DNA of 64,000 nt from Promethearchaeota archaeon (GTDB taxonomy: Archaea > Asgardarchaeota > Lokiarchaeia > Sigyniarchaeales > SOKP01). The stretch covers positions 32,001-96,000 of the forward strand of contig JAUVNS010000011.1 of assembly GCA_030599585.1 (NCBI GenBank), given 5' to 3'. The position numbers were made by a program, and so were the translations under genes. Every line of letters starts with the position of its first letter. Positions within the stretch are counted from its first letter, which is position 1. A model generated the notes under the pieces. It saw only the letters and a program-made list of their open reading frames with translations. It was not told the origin of the DNA and ran no database searches. Below are positions 5,559-48,917 of the stretch, in pieces.

Positions 5559-6380
5559 TTATTCGTCACTTTTTTCATCTGTATCTACTTCTGGCTCCAG
5601 AGAAATTTCAGAAATTTCTTCCTCTTCAACTTCTTCGAACAGGTCTTTTTCTTCTTCGGTTGGTTCTCTTGTTTCTTCACTTATCTCGAGGTCTTTTTCC
5701 ACTTTTGTTTTACGTAACTCGGCTTCTATTTTTGCTTGAACTTTAGCTAATTCTTCGTGGTTTACTACGATTGTATCCCCCATTCTTATATCAGCGTGCA
5801 TGATTTTCACAATTATCCCTAAAGTTCCTGACTTCATAACACACTGAGCTACTCCTTTATCTACTCCTTCTTGAGCAGGTTGACCTGATTTTTTCATTGT
5901 ACCGGCCCTAAATACGGTCGTCCGGGCTCTCTGTGAAGTAACCTTACCCGAAACGATAATTTCTGTACCTCTAGCTCCAGAATCCATGATTTTACGTAAT
6001 ATATAATAACCTGCTCTTCTGTAATGTCTTCCTCGATCTAGCGAATACGCTAAACGTTCCGCCATAATCTGTGCGTTCAAATCCGGGTTTTCTACCTCCT
6101 CGACTTCGATTTGGGGCAATTAGCTTAAGGGAAAAATTTTCCCCTAATTTTCTAGCTCAAATCGTTCTTGAAGGATATCCGTGATCTCTTGAATACGCTT
6201 TCCGCCTTTTCCTATTACAAGGCCTGGGCGGGACGTACGAAGAGTGATTCTAACGCCAAGCGGGGTTTTCTGTATATCAACGCCAGCAAACCCAGCCCGA
6301 ACCAGTTCAGATCTCAGGTATTCGTTTATTTGCATTAATTTGATTCCTTGTTCAATAAAATGTTTTGCTAATGGGCTCAT
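5559..6380 (-). CDS. rps3: 30S ribosomal protein uS3, interrupted; predicted exons 6149-6380 and 5559-6118, 263 aa after splicing
   Basis: Upstream ORF has KH motif RPGLVIGKGGKRI; downstream ORF has NPDLNAQIMA and GARGTEIIVSGK; both are in one frame with a 30-nt insert carrying TAG and TAA. Confidence 0.93.
6119..6148 (-). other. Candidate BHB (endonuclease-spliced) mRNA intron, 30 nt, in rps3
   Basis: mRNA: CGAUUUGAGC UAGA AA^A UUAGGGGAAA AUU UUUCCCUUAA GCUA AU^U GCCCCAAAUCG; exon-exon helix, central helix with 3 of 4 pairs, two 3-nt bulges, 10-bp inner hairpin. Confidence 0.8.
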
Positions 6381-42194: not shown

Positions 42195-43547
42195 TCAAAG
42201 TTCTTTCTTCATTTTATTAATTTCAGACCAAAAATATTTAATCGTGATATAATACCATAGTAAAAGTCCAGGTATTACTATAATTAAAGATATTAGAATA
42301 TTAGTAGGTATTATTAAACCAAAAATATCAAGATCTATAAAATCTATGGGGATAATAAATAAATCAATAGCGACAAGATATATATACCCTATTACGATTA
42401 AAATTACCATGAGAATTACGATCCCTCTTATTCTAGGATACCGATACAATAAAAATACGGTAATTAACCCAAAGAAACTCGAAATTAATGTTATTGTAAT
42501 AAAATCTATTGGTGAATTCATCAATAGTGTTGTTAAAATAGCAAAAAAGCCACATATTATCGAAATTATGTAAAAATTTTTAACTAAATCTGGTTCTTTC
42601 ATTGGTCCTTTAGCTAATATTAACCGAGGTAATGTCAAAGCAGCGCTTTTTAGATCTGAAGCCTTCATAAAATCATTTTCTATTAATAAAACATCGCTTC
42701 TATTATCTAATATTTCACTACTCTCGACGAGCCCCTTTACAGAATAAATGACATAAAAGCTATTAAATATATGAATAAGCAATGCACAAAAAACTGCTGC
42801 TTCAAGCGAACCAATTAGTGCGATCGAAGCAAAAATTGCTCCAATGCTTAATGTTCCAACATCCCCTGGAAAAATTTTAGCTGGAAACTTGTTATATAAG
42901 AAAAAGGGTACGAGTATTGCTAAGGATACAACTGAAAATAACAAACCTTCTGCGGAGTCCCATATAATAGAGCAAATAATCAAGGAAAATAAAGCGATAA
43001 TAGATGTCCCTGAACCTTCACCATTGTATCCTTCTAACATATTTACTGTATTAGCAAAAACAGCAACGATCAAAGGAGCGAGAATAGGATATATAAGATT
43101 TAGCCTTAATTTTCCCAAAAAGGGGATTGTAGGAGATTCGATTTGTATAAAACCAAAAACATTTGCCAAAAATATCACTATTCCTGTAAATAATGTTAGC
43201 AACAGCTTGTATCTTGATCTTAATTTGATTCTGTCATCTAAATAGCCAATTAAACCAGAAATTACTACTGTTAAAACAAAAATCAAAATTTCATTAAAGA
43301 AATCTGGAAAAAATACAGTTAGTAATATAGCAGTAAATGATATACCAATGATAATAGAAATCCCACCAGATTCCGGGACTTCAGTTTTTAAGTTCTTATG
43401 TATGTCTATCCCCGTGTATCCCTTCCGTTTCATGATTCTAATAATATAAGGGATAATTACTAATGTTGTGACAAATCCTACAATGAAAGATATAATTAAG
43501 TAAATTGTTTCTAAAATGCCCCAATTCATAGTAGATAGCCGAATCAT
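42195..43547 (-). CDS. UDP-GlcNAc:dolichyl-phosphate GlcNAc-1-phosphate transferase (AglH/ALG7-like)
   Basis: GIDIHK, VPESGG, GYLDD, NTVNMLEGYNG, IFPGDVGT. Confidence 0.88.
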   Translation of the reverse strand: MIRLSTMNWGILETIYLIISFIVGFVTTLVIIPYIIRIMKRKGYTGIDIHKNLKTEVPESGGISIIIGISFTAILLTVFFPDFFNEILIFVLTVVISGLIGYLDDRIKLRSRYKLLLTLFTGIVIFLANVFGFIQIESPTIPFLGKLRLNLIYPILAPLIVAVFANTVNMLEGYNGEGSGTSIIALFSLIICSIIWDSAEGLLFSVVSLAILVPFFLYNKFPAKIFPGDVGTLSIGAIFASIALIGSLEAAVFCALLIHIFNSFYVIYSVKGLVESSEILDNRSDVLLIENDFMKASDLKSAALTLPRLILAKGPMKEPDLVKNFYIISIICGFFAILTTLLMNSPIDFITITLISSFFGLITVFLLYRYPRIRGIVILMVILIVIGYIYLVAIDLFIIPIDFIDLDIFGLIIPTNILISLIIVIPGLLLWYYITIKYFWSEINKMKKEL

Positions 43548-43599
43548 GATAAATCATCCAGTTTTGGATTATAAAATCTTTTAAAATAAAAGACATAAG

Positions 43600-43701
43600 T
43601 AGCCCGGCACGGAATTTCGATTATCGAAATAACTCGATAATATTCGAACCGTGGTCACGGGGTTCAAGGCCCCAGATGCTTGGCCACTACACCACCGGGC
43701 T
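43600..43701 (-). tRNA. tRNA-Gln(UUG) with 29-nt intron at 59/60; CCA not encoded
   Basis: Acceptor AGCCCGG/CCGGGCT+A (A1-U72), anticodon arm TGGGG CCTTGAA CCCCG, T arm CACGG TTCGAA^T CCGTG; 73 nt mature. Confidence 0.95.
43614..43642 (-). other. tRNA intron (canonical BHB) in the T loop
   Basis: CACGG UUCG AA^U AUUAUCGA GUUAUU UCGAUAAU CGAA AU^U CCGUG: 4-bp central helix, two 3-nt bulges, 8-bp inner stem. Confidence 0.95.
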
Positions 43702-43714
43702 TTAATAATTATTT

Positions 43715-44338
43715 TTATAGATTAAATGGTTTTAAATTTTGTTTAAAAAATGTGTTATCTAATAAATCTTTATTGGTTTTCAGAAAGATAATATCTGCTC
43801 CTTCATCTCTATATTCATCAGGTAACATCTGCGGAATAGTTTCGATGATTGGAAACCATCTCTTACATTTAGAACAGAACAGCAACCCCGTTTCAATTTC
43901 AATATCAGTTTTGAATTTGTTTAATAGATATAATTCTGGTAAAATTGTATCAATATGTTCATTCATCAAATTGTTTGAAAAAGCGATTAATTTTGGTTTT
44001 ATATCATTTTGAATAACGCGAATACATCGCTTACTTAGCGCAAATGAGGATTTATCGCTTATATTATCTACTTCTTTAACACTAGAAATTATTGCATTTA
44101 CATAATAGCCAAGTTTACTTTTTTTGATCACAATTTCGTCTTTCAGAAGTAAATTTTCATTTTCTTGCTCAATTTCAATAATATTTTCCTTTTTAATACT
44201 AACTAAGTCTCTCTTATCATACACTTCTAATATTTCTTTAAAAACATTTTCCTTCGTTTCAAAAGAAAAGATTACCAACTCTAGCGGATAATATTTATCA
44301 ATCGGGCAAGCTAAAATATCGCACAACCACGGTCTCAT
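43715..44338 (-). CDS. trm112: Trm112-family methyltransferase activator, long form
   Basis: LCDILACPIDK...PLEL and IETGLLFCSKCKRWFPIIETIPQMLP around a long helical insert. Confidence 0.85.
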   Translation of the reverse strand: MRPWLCDILACPIDKYYPLELVIFSFETKENVFKEILEVYDKRDLVSIKKENIIEIEQENENLLLKDEIVIKKSKLGYYVNAIISSVKEVDNISDKSSFALSKRCIRVIQNDIKPKLIAFSNNLMNEHIDTILPELYLLNKFKTDIEIETGLLFCSKCKRWFPIIETIPQMLPDEYRDEGADIIFLKTNKDLLDNTFFKQNLKPFNL

Positions 44339-44359
44339 TAATTCACCGAAATTTATTAT

Positions 44360-46222
44360 TTACAATAAATAACTTCTTAGCTGTTGAATATATTTATCGA
44401 TCGTTCTATCTAATTTTTTTTGTCTATTGAAGAAATCATCTGATAATTTTTGGTATGCTGCTTTAGAAGGTAATTTACCTCTTTTATATCTCGCCTCCAA
44501 GAGATTTAAGCTATCCGAAATACTTATTCTTTCGGCATCTAACACATCAAGTCTTTTTACAATATTACTAAATGTTTCGTTAGTTTCCATCAATATTTTC
44601 TTGAAAGGGAGGATTTCGTCTTTAATCTGGTCAATTTTTATCGTGTTTTTGCTTAATAAATTTTTATAAGTCTTTTTTGCTAACTTCTTGCGCTTTGTTT
44701 CACTTTCTGCTTTTCTAATTTCCAACACTAATGCATTTCTTTCTTCGTATAATGAGCAAAATTCTCTAATTTCGCTAACAGGGATGAAATCCTTTTTGAA
44801 GATCGATACTTGTTCCTCTCTTTTTAATGTTTTAATTGCAAGAACGAAAAGCGACGACAGTAAAGCAATGATCATAATGAACACAACAGGCCTAATTAAT
44901 ATTTCAAATAAATCAATAGTGTAGGTTAATAGTACATATTTCTTTTCTAGTGGACTAACATTTTCTAGGCTAAATACTAAAACTTTAGTATTTCCCGAGT
45001 TATGCAAAGCTTCTGGTAATGAAGACATATAATCTATTCTACCACAACCTTCGATAATCACATTTGTATTTTGTTCGTATATTAGATATTCATATTTAGT
45101 CGTAAGTAGATTTATTGAAATAGATTGTTGAAGCCAATTAAAGGATGTGTATCCTTCAGGAGGAAGATAATATTCAAGATAAAACTTAAATTTTGATGTT
45201 GGTGTCAGCGAAACTCTATTCTGGTATAATTGAATAGAAACACTTTTTGTTGAAACTTCATCAATAGATTCTATGAGAGATACTCCTAGGATCTCTCCCA
45301 GATCATCATAAACTTTTACATTAATTGCATCGATTGGAATTTTCATTGATAATAAACCGACTTCAATAATTCCAACATTTTCAATTGTAATTTCTTCAAC
45401 ATTTTTAATAGTGCCCCAGGGAGATATGTAAATATCCTTGTCTATCTTTTCAATTTCTAATTTTGATGTAAATCTATCTTTTACAGAAATATATGTTTCG
45501 TTATGTTCACCTAAATTTACTAAAAAAGGCTCCAGATGATTAATTTCAAGATTTGCCCCTAAATCGTAAACAATGTTACTTCCCCCAACCAAAATCCCCA
45601 TACCCCCAATTTGTTTATGAAAGTCTAACGTTGATCCTACTGGTAACAGATAATTTCCTCTGATGACCCCTTTGCTCGTATAAGGTAAAAGAGGAAACAG
45701 CGGTCCTTGAAAAACTAAAAGTTGGGTTACCTCATTATCAATAAATGCTAGCTCGTAAGATATTAAATTTGTATATGAATGGAGAACAGTTAAAGTAACT
45801 TCTTGTGATGGTAAAAGGGGCACATCAAGATAAATCGTTATCATTTCGAAAACATCCATTATTTCATTGGATCTTTCGATTGATAGTGTGTTCCCTGTTT
45901 CGCCAAAAGCGTTAAAATAAATTAAATTATTTGAATCTTCAATTTTTATTCCAAATAAAATTGAACTAATCGGGTTGTTATTATTATTTAAGATTGTTAG
46001 CCTATCTTTTATACTTACTAACCCATAAGTACTTAAATTAGTGGTTCTTATTATTTCTACCACTAAAATGTTATCTGCACCTTCTAAATTCCCCGATAGT
46101 TGAGGGTCTTCAACTGAAAACTGATGTTGATAATTTGGTGAAAAATTATCTTGAATAGCTGAAAAAACGATCATAGCAGATAAAAGACCAATAAATATAA
46201 TGAAAAAACTTTTTCTTCTCAT
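44360..46222 (-). CDS. Ribophorin I (OST1/RPN1)-like protein
   Basis: Signal anchor, beta-rich ectodomain with ISPWGTIKNVEEITIEN (cf. VSHWGNIAVEE), VYDDLG, one TM starting RP, helical cytosolic tail. Confidence 0.75.
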   Translation of the reverse strand: MRRKSFFIIFIGLLSAMIVFSAIQDNFSPNYQHQFSVEDPQLSGNLEGADNILVVEIIRTTNLSTYGLVSIKDRLTILNNNNNPISSILFGIKIEDSNNLIYFNAFGETGNTLSIERSNEIMDVFEMITIYLDVPLLPSQEVTLTVLHSYTNLISYELAFIDNEVTQLLVFQGPLFPLLPYTSKGVIRGNYLLPVGSTLDFHKQIGGMGILVGGSNIVYDLGANLEINHLEPFLVNLGEHNETYISVKDRFTSKLEIEKIDKDIYISPWGTIKNVEEITIENVGIIEVGLLSMKIPIDAINVKVYDDLGEILGVSLIESIDEVSTKSVSIQLYQNRVSLTPTSKFKFYLEYYLPPEGYTSFNWLQQSISINLLTTKYEYLIYEQNTNVIIEGCGRIDYMSSLPEALHNSGNTKVLVFSLENVSPLEKKYVLLTYTIDLFEILIRPVVFIMIIALLSSLFVLAIKTLKREEQVSIFKKDFIPVSEIREFCSLYEERNALVLEIRKAESETKRKKLAKKTYKNLLSKNTIKIDQIKDEILPFKKILMETNETFSNIVKRLDVLDAERISISDSLNLLEARYKRGKLPSKAAYQKLSDDFFNRQKKLDRTIDKYIQQLRSYLL

Positions 46223-46378
46223 AATTTAATTCCTTTTCAAACTCGAATTAACTAACAATAATTAATACCATTAATAAAAATTTATTATATTTTTTTATAT
46301 GATTCAAGATAAAACTTATTATTTTTGTTGTTTTAAATTTATTTAATTTATAAAAATAATTGCATTATAAAAATAAAA

Positions 46379-46594
46379 ATGTCGTCTCAACGTAGCCAAT
46401 CAAGACGTAAAAAAAGGAGAAGCGGAAGCGCACCAATGCCATTAGGAGGCGCTGGTTTGATGAGGTTTTTCGAGGATAGTTCAATTGGAATCAAAGTTAG
46501 CCCGATAACAACTGTTATTTTTGCTAGTGCTTTAATATTAATAGTAATTTTTGCTTGGCTAGGTATTTTTAATTGGTTGTTTACACCCTCGTAA
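46379..46594 (+). CDS. Preprotein translocase subunit Sec61-beta
   Basis: Basic N-terminus, GAGLMRFFED...IKVSP, single C-terminal TM. Confidence 0.92.
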   Translation: MSSQRSQSRRKKRRSGSAPMPLGGAGLMRFFEDSSIGIKVSPITTVIFASALILIVIFAWLGIFNWLFTPS

Positions 46595-46636
46595 CTTTAT
46601 TTTTAACATTTTTTATGAAGGTGATTACATTTAAAC

Positions 46637-46930
46637 ATGCGTATGTCGGAATTTCAGGCGTTACTCAAAAAGCTCTACCTTCACAAGGACCTAAATCGAG
46701 GGATTAATAGCACGTACATCTGGCTTATTGAAGAAATTGGTGAGCTTGCTACTTTATTAAACGCCCAAGAATTAGATAAAAAAAAGATTTCTGAAGAGTT
46801 AGCAGATATAATAGCCTGGACAATTTCTATTGCAAATATCTTAAATATTGATATAGAAAAAGCTATAGTTAGTAAATATCCTAATAAGTGTAAAAAGTGT
46901 AATTCCTCTCCTTGTAATTGTGTAAAATGA
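46637..46930 (+). CDS. MazG-like nucleotide pyrophosphohydrolase
   Basis: LIEEIGELA, EELADI, C-terminal KYP-CxxC-x3-PCxC. Confidence 0.88.
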   Translation: MRMSEFQALLKKLYLHKDLNRGINSTYIWLIEEIGELATLLNAQELDKKKISEELADIIAWTISIANILNIDIEKAIVSKYPNKCKKCNSSPCNCVK

Positions 46931-46992
46931 TTAAATTAATATTTTTGGCAATATATTTTAACTAAAAATTAAAAGAAAGTGAATCCATAGAA

Positions 46993-47751
46993 GTGAATCT
47001 GGAAGATATAAATAATTCTTTTATTCATAAGAATGCTATCGTGGATAAAAATGCATACATTGATACATTTTCAATAATTGGAAAGGGCGTTAAAATAGAA
47101 AGTGGAGTTTATATCTCTAATGGTGTCAAAATTTACGGGAATGCTTTAATTCAATCAGGAACATATATAGGGGAAAATAGTATCATTGGACACCCTCAAC
47201 GAGCGGAATTATTAACAATTGTAAAGAGTAAGAAGAATGTAACGGATTATGAGAGTCCATTAATTTCTATAGGAACAAATTGTACTATAAGAGCCGGTAG
47301 TATAATTTACTCTGAAGTTTCAATCGGGAAAAATTGTCAAACAGGACACAATGTTATGATAAGAGAAAAAACATCAATAGGGCATAATACAATTATAGGT
47401 ACTAATACTGTTATTGATGGTAATGTAATAATAGGCAATGAAGTCAGTATTCAAACGGGCGTATATATTCCGTTAAATTGCAGAATTGGAAATAATGTAT
47501 TTATGGGTCCTTTCAGTAAATTAACGAATGATAAATACATGATGCGGAAGGTACCTGATTTAATTGGTCCAACAATTGAAGACGAAGTATCCTTAGGTGC
47601 AAACTCAGTTATTTTACCGGGAATCACTTTAAAAAGGGGAACAATGGTTGGAGCAGGTGCCGTTGTTACAAAAAATACTGCGGAAGGGGATATAGTTGTA
47701 GGAAATCCTGCTAAGTTTTTAAAAAAAAAACCTGCAGATTGGATTTTTTAG
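46993..47751 (+). CDS. Hexapeptide-repeat (left-handed beta-helix) sugar acyltransferase
   Basis: Repeated [IV]GxxxxI units; TND; GANSVILPG; GAGAVVTK; VVGNPAK. Confidence 0.9.
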   Translation: MNLEDINNSFIHKNAIVDKNAYIDTFSIIGKGVKIESGVYISNGVKIYGNALIQSGTYIGENSIIGHPQRAELLTIVKSKKNVTDYESPLISIGTNCTIRAGSIIYSEVSIGKNCQTGHNVMIREKTSIGHNTIIGTNTVIDGNVIIGNEVSIQTGVYIPLNCRIGNNVFMGPFSKLTNDKYMMRKVPDLIGPTIEDEVSLGANSVILPGITLKRGTMVGAGAVVTKNTAEGDIVVGNPAKFLKKKPADWIF

Positions 47752-47807
47752 CAAAATATACTTATTTATTTAATTTTTAAATAATAACTGAAAGAACTGG
47801 TATAATT

Positions 47808-48917
47808 ATGAGTCTGTCAGGGAAGAAAATTTGGATTGATATAGAAGAACCAAAAACAGGGATAATGTTTAAATCTCTTCTAGAAAAATTTAGAAATGAT
47901 GGAGCTGATATCCTTGTTACAGCAAGAGATTACGACTCAACCTTTCAAATTCTAGATGATTTAGAAGTAAATTATGAGAAAGTAGGGACACATGGGGGTG
48001 CCACCTTAGAAAAAAAATTAGAGTCATATATCAATCGTTTAGTGGAATTATATCCTAAGGTTGTAAATTTTAAGCCAAATTATTTTATTACATTTTCATC
48101 TGTTGAAGGTGCAAGAATCTCATATGGGCTAAATATCCCTTCAATAGGTTATAACGACGAACCTCGTAATGTTCCAGTATGTAAACTGATATTTCCCTAT
48201 TTAGATAATATTATTACTCCAATTTGTGTTCCCGAACAGCTGTATATAGACCTTCACGCAAATCCAAATAAAATATTAAGATATAATGGTATAGACGAGA
48301 TTGCTTGGTTATCGGAATATCAACCAAATCCTTCCATTCTTGATGAATTCAACTTAAAGAAAGGAGAATACGTACTTATACGAAGTGAACCCTCATTTGC
48401 AAGCTACTTTATTGATATTCTTAAGCCAGAAGAATCATTAATTAGTAAATTTTTTCCTCCAATATTTAAAGAATTTCCAAATCATAAATTTTTGATAATT
48501 GTAAGAACTAAAAAGCAAGAGTTATTTCTCAACGAGAAATTGGAGAATTACTTAGGAAATTCCAACATAAAAATAACAAGATACATGCCGAATATTGTTG
48601 ACCTATGTTTTTACAGCAGTTTAGTGATCAGCGGTGGTGGAACAATTGTACGTGAATCAAGTCTATTAAATGTACCAAGTATAGAATTTTTTCCAGGAGA
48701 GACCGCACCCCAAGAGCTTTTTTTAATAAATAATGGCTTTCCGTTACAACATATCAAAGAGATTGATGAAATTGTAAAAAAATCTTTGGAAATTCTTTCA
48801 ACAAAACCGAAATCTGATAGGTTTAACAATAGTTTTCAAGAAAAACTATTGAATTTTGAGAATCCAAATGATATCTGTTATAAATTTGTTAAAAAAAAAC
48901 TCTTGGAGCGTTCTTAG
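47808..48917 (+). CDS. DUF354 family GT-B-fold protein
   Basis: KIWID, VTARDY, VGTHGG, RSEPSFASY, ISGGGTIVRE. Confidence 0.85.
   Translation: MSLSGKKIWIDIEEPKTGIMFKSLLEKFRNDGADILVTARDYDSTFQILDDLEVNYEKVGTHGGATLEKKLESYINRLVELYPKVVNFKPNYFITFSSVEGARISYGLNIPSIGYNDEPRNVPVCKLIFPYLDNIITPICVPEQLYIDLHANPNKILRYNGIDEIAWLSEYQPNPSILDEFNLKKGEYVLIRSEPSFASYFIDILKPEESLISKFFPPIFKEFPNHKFLIIVRTKKQELFLNEKLENYLGNSNIKITRYMPNIVDLCFYSSLVISGGGTIVRESSLLNVPSIEFFPGETAPQELFLINNGFPLQHIKEIDEIVKKSLEILSTKPKSDRFNNSFQEKLLNFENPNDICYKFVKKKLLERS

Follow-up and report, generated by a model that had tools for sequence, protein, structure and literature searches.

A Bulge-Helix-Bulge Intron in the T-Loop of the Sole tRNA-Gln(UUG) Gene of a Lokiarchaeia-Type Asgard Archaeon

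In the genome of a Lokiarchaeia-type Asgard archaeon, the only gene for tRNA-Gln(UUG) was found to be interrupted between tRNA positions 59 and 60 by an insert of 29 nt. The gene occupies 43701–43600 on the minus strand of the window (the whole 64-kb stretch of DNA that was analyzed, to which all coordinates given without a contig name refer), and the insert lies at 43614–43642. We put the probability that this insert is a genuine archaeal bulge-helix-bulge (BHB) intron in the T-loop at approximately 95%. A first-pass annotation, made from the sequence, had proposed a perfect BHB intron at position 59/60 with a length of 29 nt and the bulges AA^U and AU^U (^ marking the cut), and its coordinates, strand, length, and bulges were all reproduced exactly. 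The host genome is a metagenome-assembled genome of 4.85 Mb with a GC content of 32.6% and an estimated contamination of 8.9%; every element used in this analysis recurs across the genus.

Structure of the Interrupted Gene and Its Predicted Product

The complete gene (43600–43701, minus strand) is composed of 102 nt, which correspond to a mature tRNA of 73 nt plus the intron. It lacks an encoded CCA, and a T-rich tract is present 3' of its end. We recognized the acceptor stem (AGCCCGG/CCGGGCT), the D arm, the anticodon loop (CCTTGAA), a variable loop of 4 nt, and the T stem (CACGG/CCGTG), whose two strands are 36 nt apart and not 7 (TTCGAA, the 29 nt of the insert, and T). The 5' exon (43643–43701, minus strand) contains tRNA positions 1–59, beginning with A1 at 43701 and ending with T54, T55, C56, G57, A58, and A59. 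The 3' exon (43600–43613, minus strand) contains U60, the 3' strand of the T stem (CCGTG), the 3' strand of the acceptor stem (CCGGGCT), and the discriminator A73 (43600).

The intron (43614–43642, minus strand) consists of one bulge nucleotide, a hairpin of 22 nt, the tetranucleotide CGAA, and two further bulge nucleotides, and together with its flanks it forms the typical hBHBh' arrangement. The outer helix h is the 5-bp T stem. The central helix, situated between the bulges AA^U and AU^U, has 4 bp and is formed by TTCG (tRNA nucleotides 54–57; 43645–43648, minus strand) and the intronic CGAA (43616–43619). The 5' bulge contains A58, A59, and the first intron nucleotide (U), and the 3' bulge contains the last two intron nucleotides (A and U) and U60. 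The inner hairpin h' (43620–43641, minus strand) has 8 bp, with ATTATCGA and TCGATAAT on either side of the loop GTTATT. With each bulge cut behind its second base, A59 would be joined to U60, giving the T-loop TTCGAAT.

Neither ARAGORN nor an Rfam search at the gathering cut-off detected any tRNA in the whole 64-kb window. The unspliced locus reached 14.6 bits in a permissive Rfam search, and its unspliced 104 nt gave no ARAGORN call. After removal of exactly 43614–43642, ARAGORN recognizes a tRNA-Gln(ttg) of 74 nt. The predicted spliced product is matched in every base by the intronless gene of a sister species (G046), for which the RF00005 score is 53.2 bits. Among 91,846 BHB-like candidates in the GC islands of the genome, 23 yield a tRNA upon excision; with this proportion and a covarying conservation in 27 species (see below), the match at tRNA-Gln is far beyond chance. 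These results also carry a practical warning, as standard tRNA finders miss the sole decoder of the commonest glutamine codon and report zero tRNA in the window.

Folding of the precursor with RNAfold gave a cloverleaf with the intron hairpin (-41.9 kcal/mol, z = -3.7). The minimum free energy structure of this particular sequence adds a pair between A58 and U, which results in a central register of 5 bp with bulges 5 bp apart, that is, not a canonical BHB. The canonical 4-bp register appears to be an isoenergetic alternative, and it is the 4-bp register that gives the correct product.

The genome contains two tRNA genes for glutamine, one with the anticodon UUG and one with CUG. CAA accounts for 80% of the glutamine codons in 1,959 long open reading frames (ORFs); with a single UUG gene to decode them, the intron must be removed. 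CAA cannot be decoded with a CUG anticodon, which makes the interrupted UUG gene indispensable.

The tRNA gene is surrounded by a region of glycosylation type (42195–48917), which encodes a GT4 family protein, a ribophorin I homolog, a hexapeptide transferase, and a DUF354 protein. The ribophorin I homolog is one of the Asgard "eukaryotic signature" proteins. Directly upstream of the tRNA gene is an ORF of 207 aa with a split match to a Trm112-like zinc ribbon.

Conservation and History of the Intron in the Genus

Of the 42 genomes of the genus, 27 have tRNA-Gln(UUG) interrupted at this very position by 29 nt, 13 have an uninterrupted gene, and 2 gave no match. The uninterrupted genes read CACGGTTCGAATCCGTG, and the exons of the interrupted gene are 100% identical to these intact orthologs.

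Covariation was analyzed in a gapless alignment of the 27 intron-bearing T arms (46 columns). Under the BHB structure, 94.6% of the cells in the 27 T arms are paired, compared with 27–48% when the partners are slid by 1–3 columns; for the TTCG:CGAA pairing of the central helix, the proportion is 97.8%. Six of the eight pairs of the inner helix are altered on both sides across the genus, and in 500 shuffles neither the covariation score nor the count of double changes was ever as high as in the alignment. Variation is absent or nearly absent from the CGAA and the exon part. The first intron nucleotide is A in 25 of the 27 orthologs and U in this genome, and the 3' bulge differs among the orthologs in its two intron-derived bases, which read AU, AC, UA, UG, or AA.

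These data bear on the reading that nothing is spliced, either because the gene is defunct or because the mature RNA keeps the insert. We consider it exceedingly improbable, as the gene is the sole UUG isoacceptor in a genome that uses mainly CAA for glutamine, its exons are identical to those of intact orthologs, and the constant length of 29 nt and the compensatory changes across 27 species bear the signature of selection on the BHB fold. Moreover, a T-loop of 36 nt is incompatible with the D/T-loop elbow of tRNA, which a retained insert could therefore not form. A pseudogene, an assembly artifact, and a group I or group II intron were ruled out as well, considering the retention of the insert in 27 species, the status of the gene as the only one for UUG, and the length of 29 nt, which is far below ribozyme size.

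The history of the genuine BHB intron was analyzed on a tree of a single locus, a 3.4-kb ribosomal-protein operon from 37 genomes (FastTree, midpoint-rooted). On this operon tree, the intronless species form three well-supported groups nested among intron-bearing species. Fitch parsimony gave three changes with the intron present at the root, and three losses are about equally parsimonious with three to four gains. Introns from different clades resemble each other in length, at their ends, and to some extent in the stem sequence, and because of this homology we favor a single gain near the base of the genus, probably followed by precise loss in approximately three lineages. In two other families of the order, four tRNA-Gln(UUG) genes were found, all of which are intronless at 59/60.

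A related intron of 29–30 nt is present at position 59/60 of the paralogous tRNA-Gln(CUG) gene in at least nine congeners; the paralog in this genome (C8:105193–105265) is intronless. The T arm and acceptor stem of the Gln(CUG) gene are identical to those of the Gln(UUG) gene, so that gene conversion between them might both propagate and remove the intron. As an alternative to losses, the intron could have been erased or copied through such conversion.

In another family of the order, one genome (G029) has a tRNA-Gln(CUG) with a T-loop intron of 26 nt ending in ...CGAAAT. A tRNA-like 5' fragment (GGCCCGATGGTGTAGCGGCC...) is located just upstream of this intron-bearing gene.

Splicing Enzymes and Other tRNA Introns

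Two ORFs of 200 and 201 aa, each with N- and C-terminal domains, encode paralogs of the splicing endonuclease EndA. The best-aligning structure for EndA alpha was 3P1Z_B, the catalytic alpha subunit from A. pernix (E = 1e-33). EndA alpha retains the catalytic Tyr/His/Lys (VVY, EHS, and VRKK when compared with 3P1Z_B) and contains the L1/CSL insertion with the conserved lysine (..SKPR..), FFGSPLGISKPR being aligned to YYGQPLDVEKPR of 3P1Z_B. The role of the CSL lysine (Lys44 in A. pernix) has been described previously (PMC3241643; PMC5829648). In EndA beta, comparison with M. jannaschii EndA (1A79) revealed that Asp replaces the catalytic His (KEHS to EKDS). Both paralog classes were detected in 37 of the 42 genomes of the genus, indicating that neither is a contaminant. 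RtcB is also encoded in the genome. Classification of the subunit architecture, which had been suggested beforehand as a check on the intron calls, thus gave a two-subunit type, and the genome is predicted to encode an (alpha-beta)2 EndA with an L1/CSL loop. An (alpha-beta)2 EndA with L1 has been reported for Asgard archaea, and the L1 loop has been tied to cleavage of non-canonical introns and broad specificity (Kaneta et al. 2018, PMC5829648).

We infer the following course of splicing. The tRNA-Gln(UUG) gene would be transcribed together with the insert, and in the precursor the T stem would act as outer helix. T-loop nucleotides 54–57 would pair with the intronic CGAA to form the 4-bp central helix, by which A58-A59 and the first intron nucleotide would become the 5' bulge and the last two intron nucleotides and U60 the 3' bulge, with the remainder of the intron folding as a 22-nt hairpin. 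The (alpha-beta)2 endonuclease of two-subunit type, with its L1/CSL loop, would cleave after the second base of each bulge, and the exons would be joined by RtcB, restoring the 7-nt T-loop TTCGAAU.

When tRNA genes were searched genome-wide without intron handling, approximately 16 of the approximately 46 expected were found. The intron calls of ARAGORN with the -i option on the whole genome were implausible, such as i(39,1245), and were not used for intron positions. Introns were placed instead by a BHB-excision scan restricted to contiguous helices and to at most two or three introns per gene, so that its counts are lower bounds. T-loop introns were detected in at least eight tRNA genes. Besides the 29-nt intron of Gln(UUG), seven introns of 30–31 nt were found, in Val(UAC), Arg(GCG) (in the 58/59 register), Lys(UUU), Thr(GGU), Arg(UCU), Arg(CCU), and a multi-intron gene on contig C3 (C3:23880–24125); that of Arg(UCU) has 31 nt, and the other six have 30 nt. 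These seven are located at C4:25417–25446, C9:251004–251033, C32:42634–42663, C8:34748–34777, C11:158287–158317, C21:156685–156714, and C3:24067–24096. Three of the seven genes contain a second intron, located at 37/38 (18–20 nt) or in the D arm (29 nt), and those 37/38 introns that could be placed by the scan are 18–20 nt. The endonuclease must act outside the anticodon loop, as had been deduced from the Gln intron, given these T-loop introns in at least eight genes and further introns in the D arm or at 31/32.

The T-loop intron of tRNA-Gln resembles the canonical 37/38 intron in that a 5-bp stem serves as h and the first four loop bases are the 5' strand of the central helix. It differs in the loop involved and in length (29–31 nt for T-loop introns vs. 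18–20 nt for the 37/38 introns of this genome). In its geometry, 59/60 would correspond exactly to 37/38, the cut falling in both after the sixth base of a 7-nt loop closed by a 5-bp stem, and this likeness may be the reason for the preference for T-loops.

Another reading holds that the tRNA-Gln intron is spliced but kept for a function of its own, which might be to mask the target of an integrase in the T arm or to time the modification of T54, Psi55, and m1A58. Masking of integrase targets by introns is reportedly a hypothesis of Randau and Soll. The recurrence of T-loop introns in at least eight tRNA genes and the persistence of this one across most of the genus would agree with such a function, but 13 congeners do well without the intron and its conservation is limited to the BHB-forming parts, and we regard this reading as distinctly unlikely.

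Non-canonical BHB introns in tRNAs of Thermoproteales and other Crenarchaeota are said to have been described by Marck and Grosjean in 2003 and by Sugahara in 2008. They are similar to the tRNA-Gln intron with regard to the hBHBh' structure, the 59/60 position, the predicted cleavage inside two 3-nt bulges, and the reliance on an (alpha-beta)2 EndA with a CSL/L1 loop; the host in our case differs in being a mesophilic Lokiarchaeia-type Asgard archaeon with 33% GC. Furthermore, the introns of Thermoproteales form inter-tRNA sequence families (28% vs. 7% for shuffled sequences; bioRxiv 10.64898/2026.10.13.758758), whereas the introns here do not. The T-arm introns of Asgard archaea analyzed in the same preprint share with ours the superphylum, the arm, canonical BHB boundaries, and an alpha/beta EndA background. 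That study is focused on Jordiarchaeia and Atabeyarchaeia, without mention of the tRNA-Gln locus. The history here looks like one gain and several precise losses and not like repeated gains. Considering that 59/60 is a listed non-canonical intron position in archaea (PMC4090602), that T-arm introns are common in Asgard tRNAs (bioRxiv 10.64898/2026.10.13.758758), and that an alpha-beta EndA with L1 has already been described in this group, the tRNA-Gln intron is an ordinary one.

The rps3 Insert and the Relationship among Short Introns

The first-pass annotation had linked the tRNA-Gln intron to an insert in rps3 (uS3), for which it gave a length of 30 nt, a 5' bulge of the form AA^N, and a 3' bulge AU^U. 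This geometry was confirmed. On the minus strand, uS3 begins at 6380 and reads ...ERFELE before it enters the insert (6119–6148, minus strand), which is in frame, has 30 nt, and carries TAG and TAA. Approximately 38 congeners have the uninterrupted CTAGAAATGCCCC (LEMPQIEV), and among approximately 40 congeners the insert was found only in this genome (G000) and in one other, G014. Excision would join CTAGAAA to TGCCCC and give ...LEMPQIEV..., identical to the approximately 38 congeners; a single excision register reproduces the sequence of these relatives, and it is the register of the BHB rule, with the bulges AA^A and AU^U. The structure is a relaxed and not a perfect BHB: three of the four pairs of the central helix are formed (with an A·G mismatch), the outer helix has 2 bp followed by an internal loop and then 7 bp of exon–exon pairing, and the inner helix has 10 bp. 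As had been argued previously, the tRNA findings make the rps3 call more credible, and the excision under the BHB rule independently restores the sequence of the approximately 38 relatives.

The two rps3 inserts are located at the same site and are homologous (0 of 5,000 shuffles reached their alignment score), although the 3' bulge is AA^U in G014 vs. AU^U in this genome. Since G000 and G014 are not sister species in the operon tree, the shared insert suggests numerous losses, recombination, or renewed insertion at this specific site. The branch of G014 in this tree is very long. G014 also has a second short match (95%) to the start of rps3 approximately 2.6 kb away (G014:C122:16577–16613).

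The rps3 insert resembles the BHB intron in the cbf5 pre-mRNA of Desulfurococcales and Sulfolobales (PMC2738675): both are small insertions with a BHB-like fold in a protein-coding gene, excision (predicted in the case of rps3) restores the conserved protein, and the distribution among relatives is patchy. The rps3 insert differs in the gene affected (uS3), the phylum, and the relaxed central helix (three of four pairs).

Two further protein-coding genes of this genome contain short inserts, both of which were missed by the strict enumerator. The uL11 gene is split by a frame-shifting insert of 28 nt (C28:32730–32757, minus strand); inspection by eye showed GCAT:ATGC, both bulges as AA^A, and a first inner pair that is mismatched (U·U). 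The elf1 gene (C32:69609–69854, minus strand) has an in-frame TAA within an extra segment of approximately 30 nt. In a genome-wide analysis, 779 BHB excisions restored a long ORF, compared with 682–890 in controls with the 3' cut shifted by 1–2 nt, a count in which gene boundaries swamp the signal. The lengths of loose BHB motifs in the genome show no peak near 30 nt (approximately 60 per length over 24–60 nt), as background dominates.

It had also been suggested that the two introns come from one pool of short introns which spread between tRNA and mRNA. We compared eleven introns of approximately 30 nt (the eight T-loop introns, two from other tRNA sites, and the rps3 insert). No pairwise similarity beyond that of shuffled sequences was observed among them, the top global score being 4 vs. 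a 95th-percentile maximum of 6 for the shuffled sets, and blastn-short found no second copy of any of the eleven in this genome. The mean pairwise score is slightly raised (-3.6 vs. -5.1), which is what the YGAA tail shared by the T-loop introns would give. The match of the bulges carries no weight because A58, N59, and U60 are tRNA exon bases and the intronic bulge bases vary among orthologs. With introns that are dissimilar in sequence and single-copy, and with bulges that are uninformative, the suggestion is not upheld. The features common to these introns are size (28–31 nt) and shape only: one bulge base, a hairpin of 22–23 nt, four pairing bases, and two bulge bases. Such features may reflect the tolerance of the enzyme or the mode of intron origin.

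Transposition or reverse splicing of introns is said to have been proposed by Fujishima in 2010 for Thermoproteales. Near-identical introns in different host genes of one genome, which characterize transposing families of the Thermoproteales type, were not found here. That the tRNA-Gln intron and the rps3 insert belong to one mini-intron family of approximately 30 nt, moving between tRNA genes and mRNAs by reverse splicing or transposition, is therefore unlikely in our view. Several observations could be explained in this way: the shared size and shape class (29–31 nt for T-loop introns, 30 nt for rps3, and 28 nt for uL11 vs. 18–20 nt for 37/38 introns), the homologous rps3 inserts at one site in two non-sister species, and the related intron in the Gln(CUG) paralog of at least nine congeners. 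However, the eleven introns lack similarity to each other and each is single-copy, the bulge identity is uninformative, and the ages differ, with 27 of 42 species having the Gln intron and 2 of approximately 40 the rps3 insert. For the spread between the two Gln genes, ordinary gene conversion is a sufficient explanation, given their identical flanks. A census of Asgard tRNAs likewise gave no sign of copying between tRNA genes (bioRxiv 10.64898/2026.10.13.758758, section 2.5).

A broader possibility, which we raise only tentatively and think rather unlikely, is that this lineage has one genome-wide class of hairpin mini-introns of approximately 30 nt with a common mechanism of origin, settling wherever a BHB can form, favoring T-loops, and having colonized rps3, uL11, and elf1. 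If this is true, the tRNA-Gln intron would be an old member of the class and the rps3 insert a young one, and mRNA processing by EndA and RtcB would be routine in the closest prokaryotic relatives of eukaryotes.

The value of the tRNA-Gln(UUG) intron lies in calibration. With its intronless alleles as natural controls, it shows that exon junctions in this organism are predicted exactly by the rule of BHB cutting, and its fold and conservation suggest that the splicing system of the organism handles hairpin introns of approximately 30 nt outside the anticodon loop. It thereby gives real but indirect support to the much less usual claim that rps3 and other protein genes need tRNA-type splicing.
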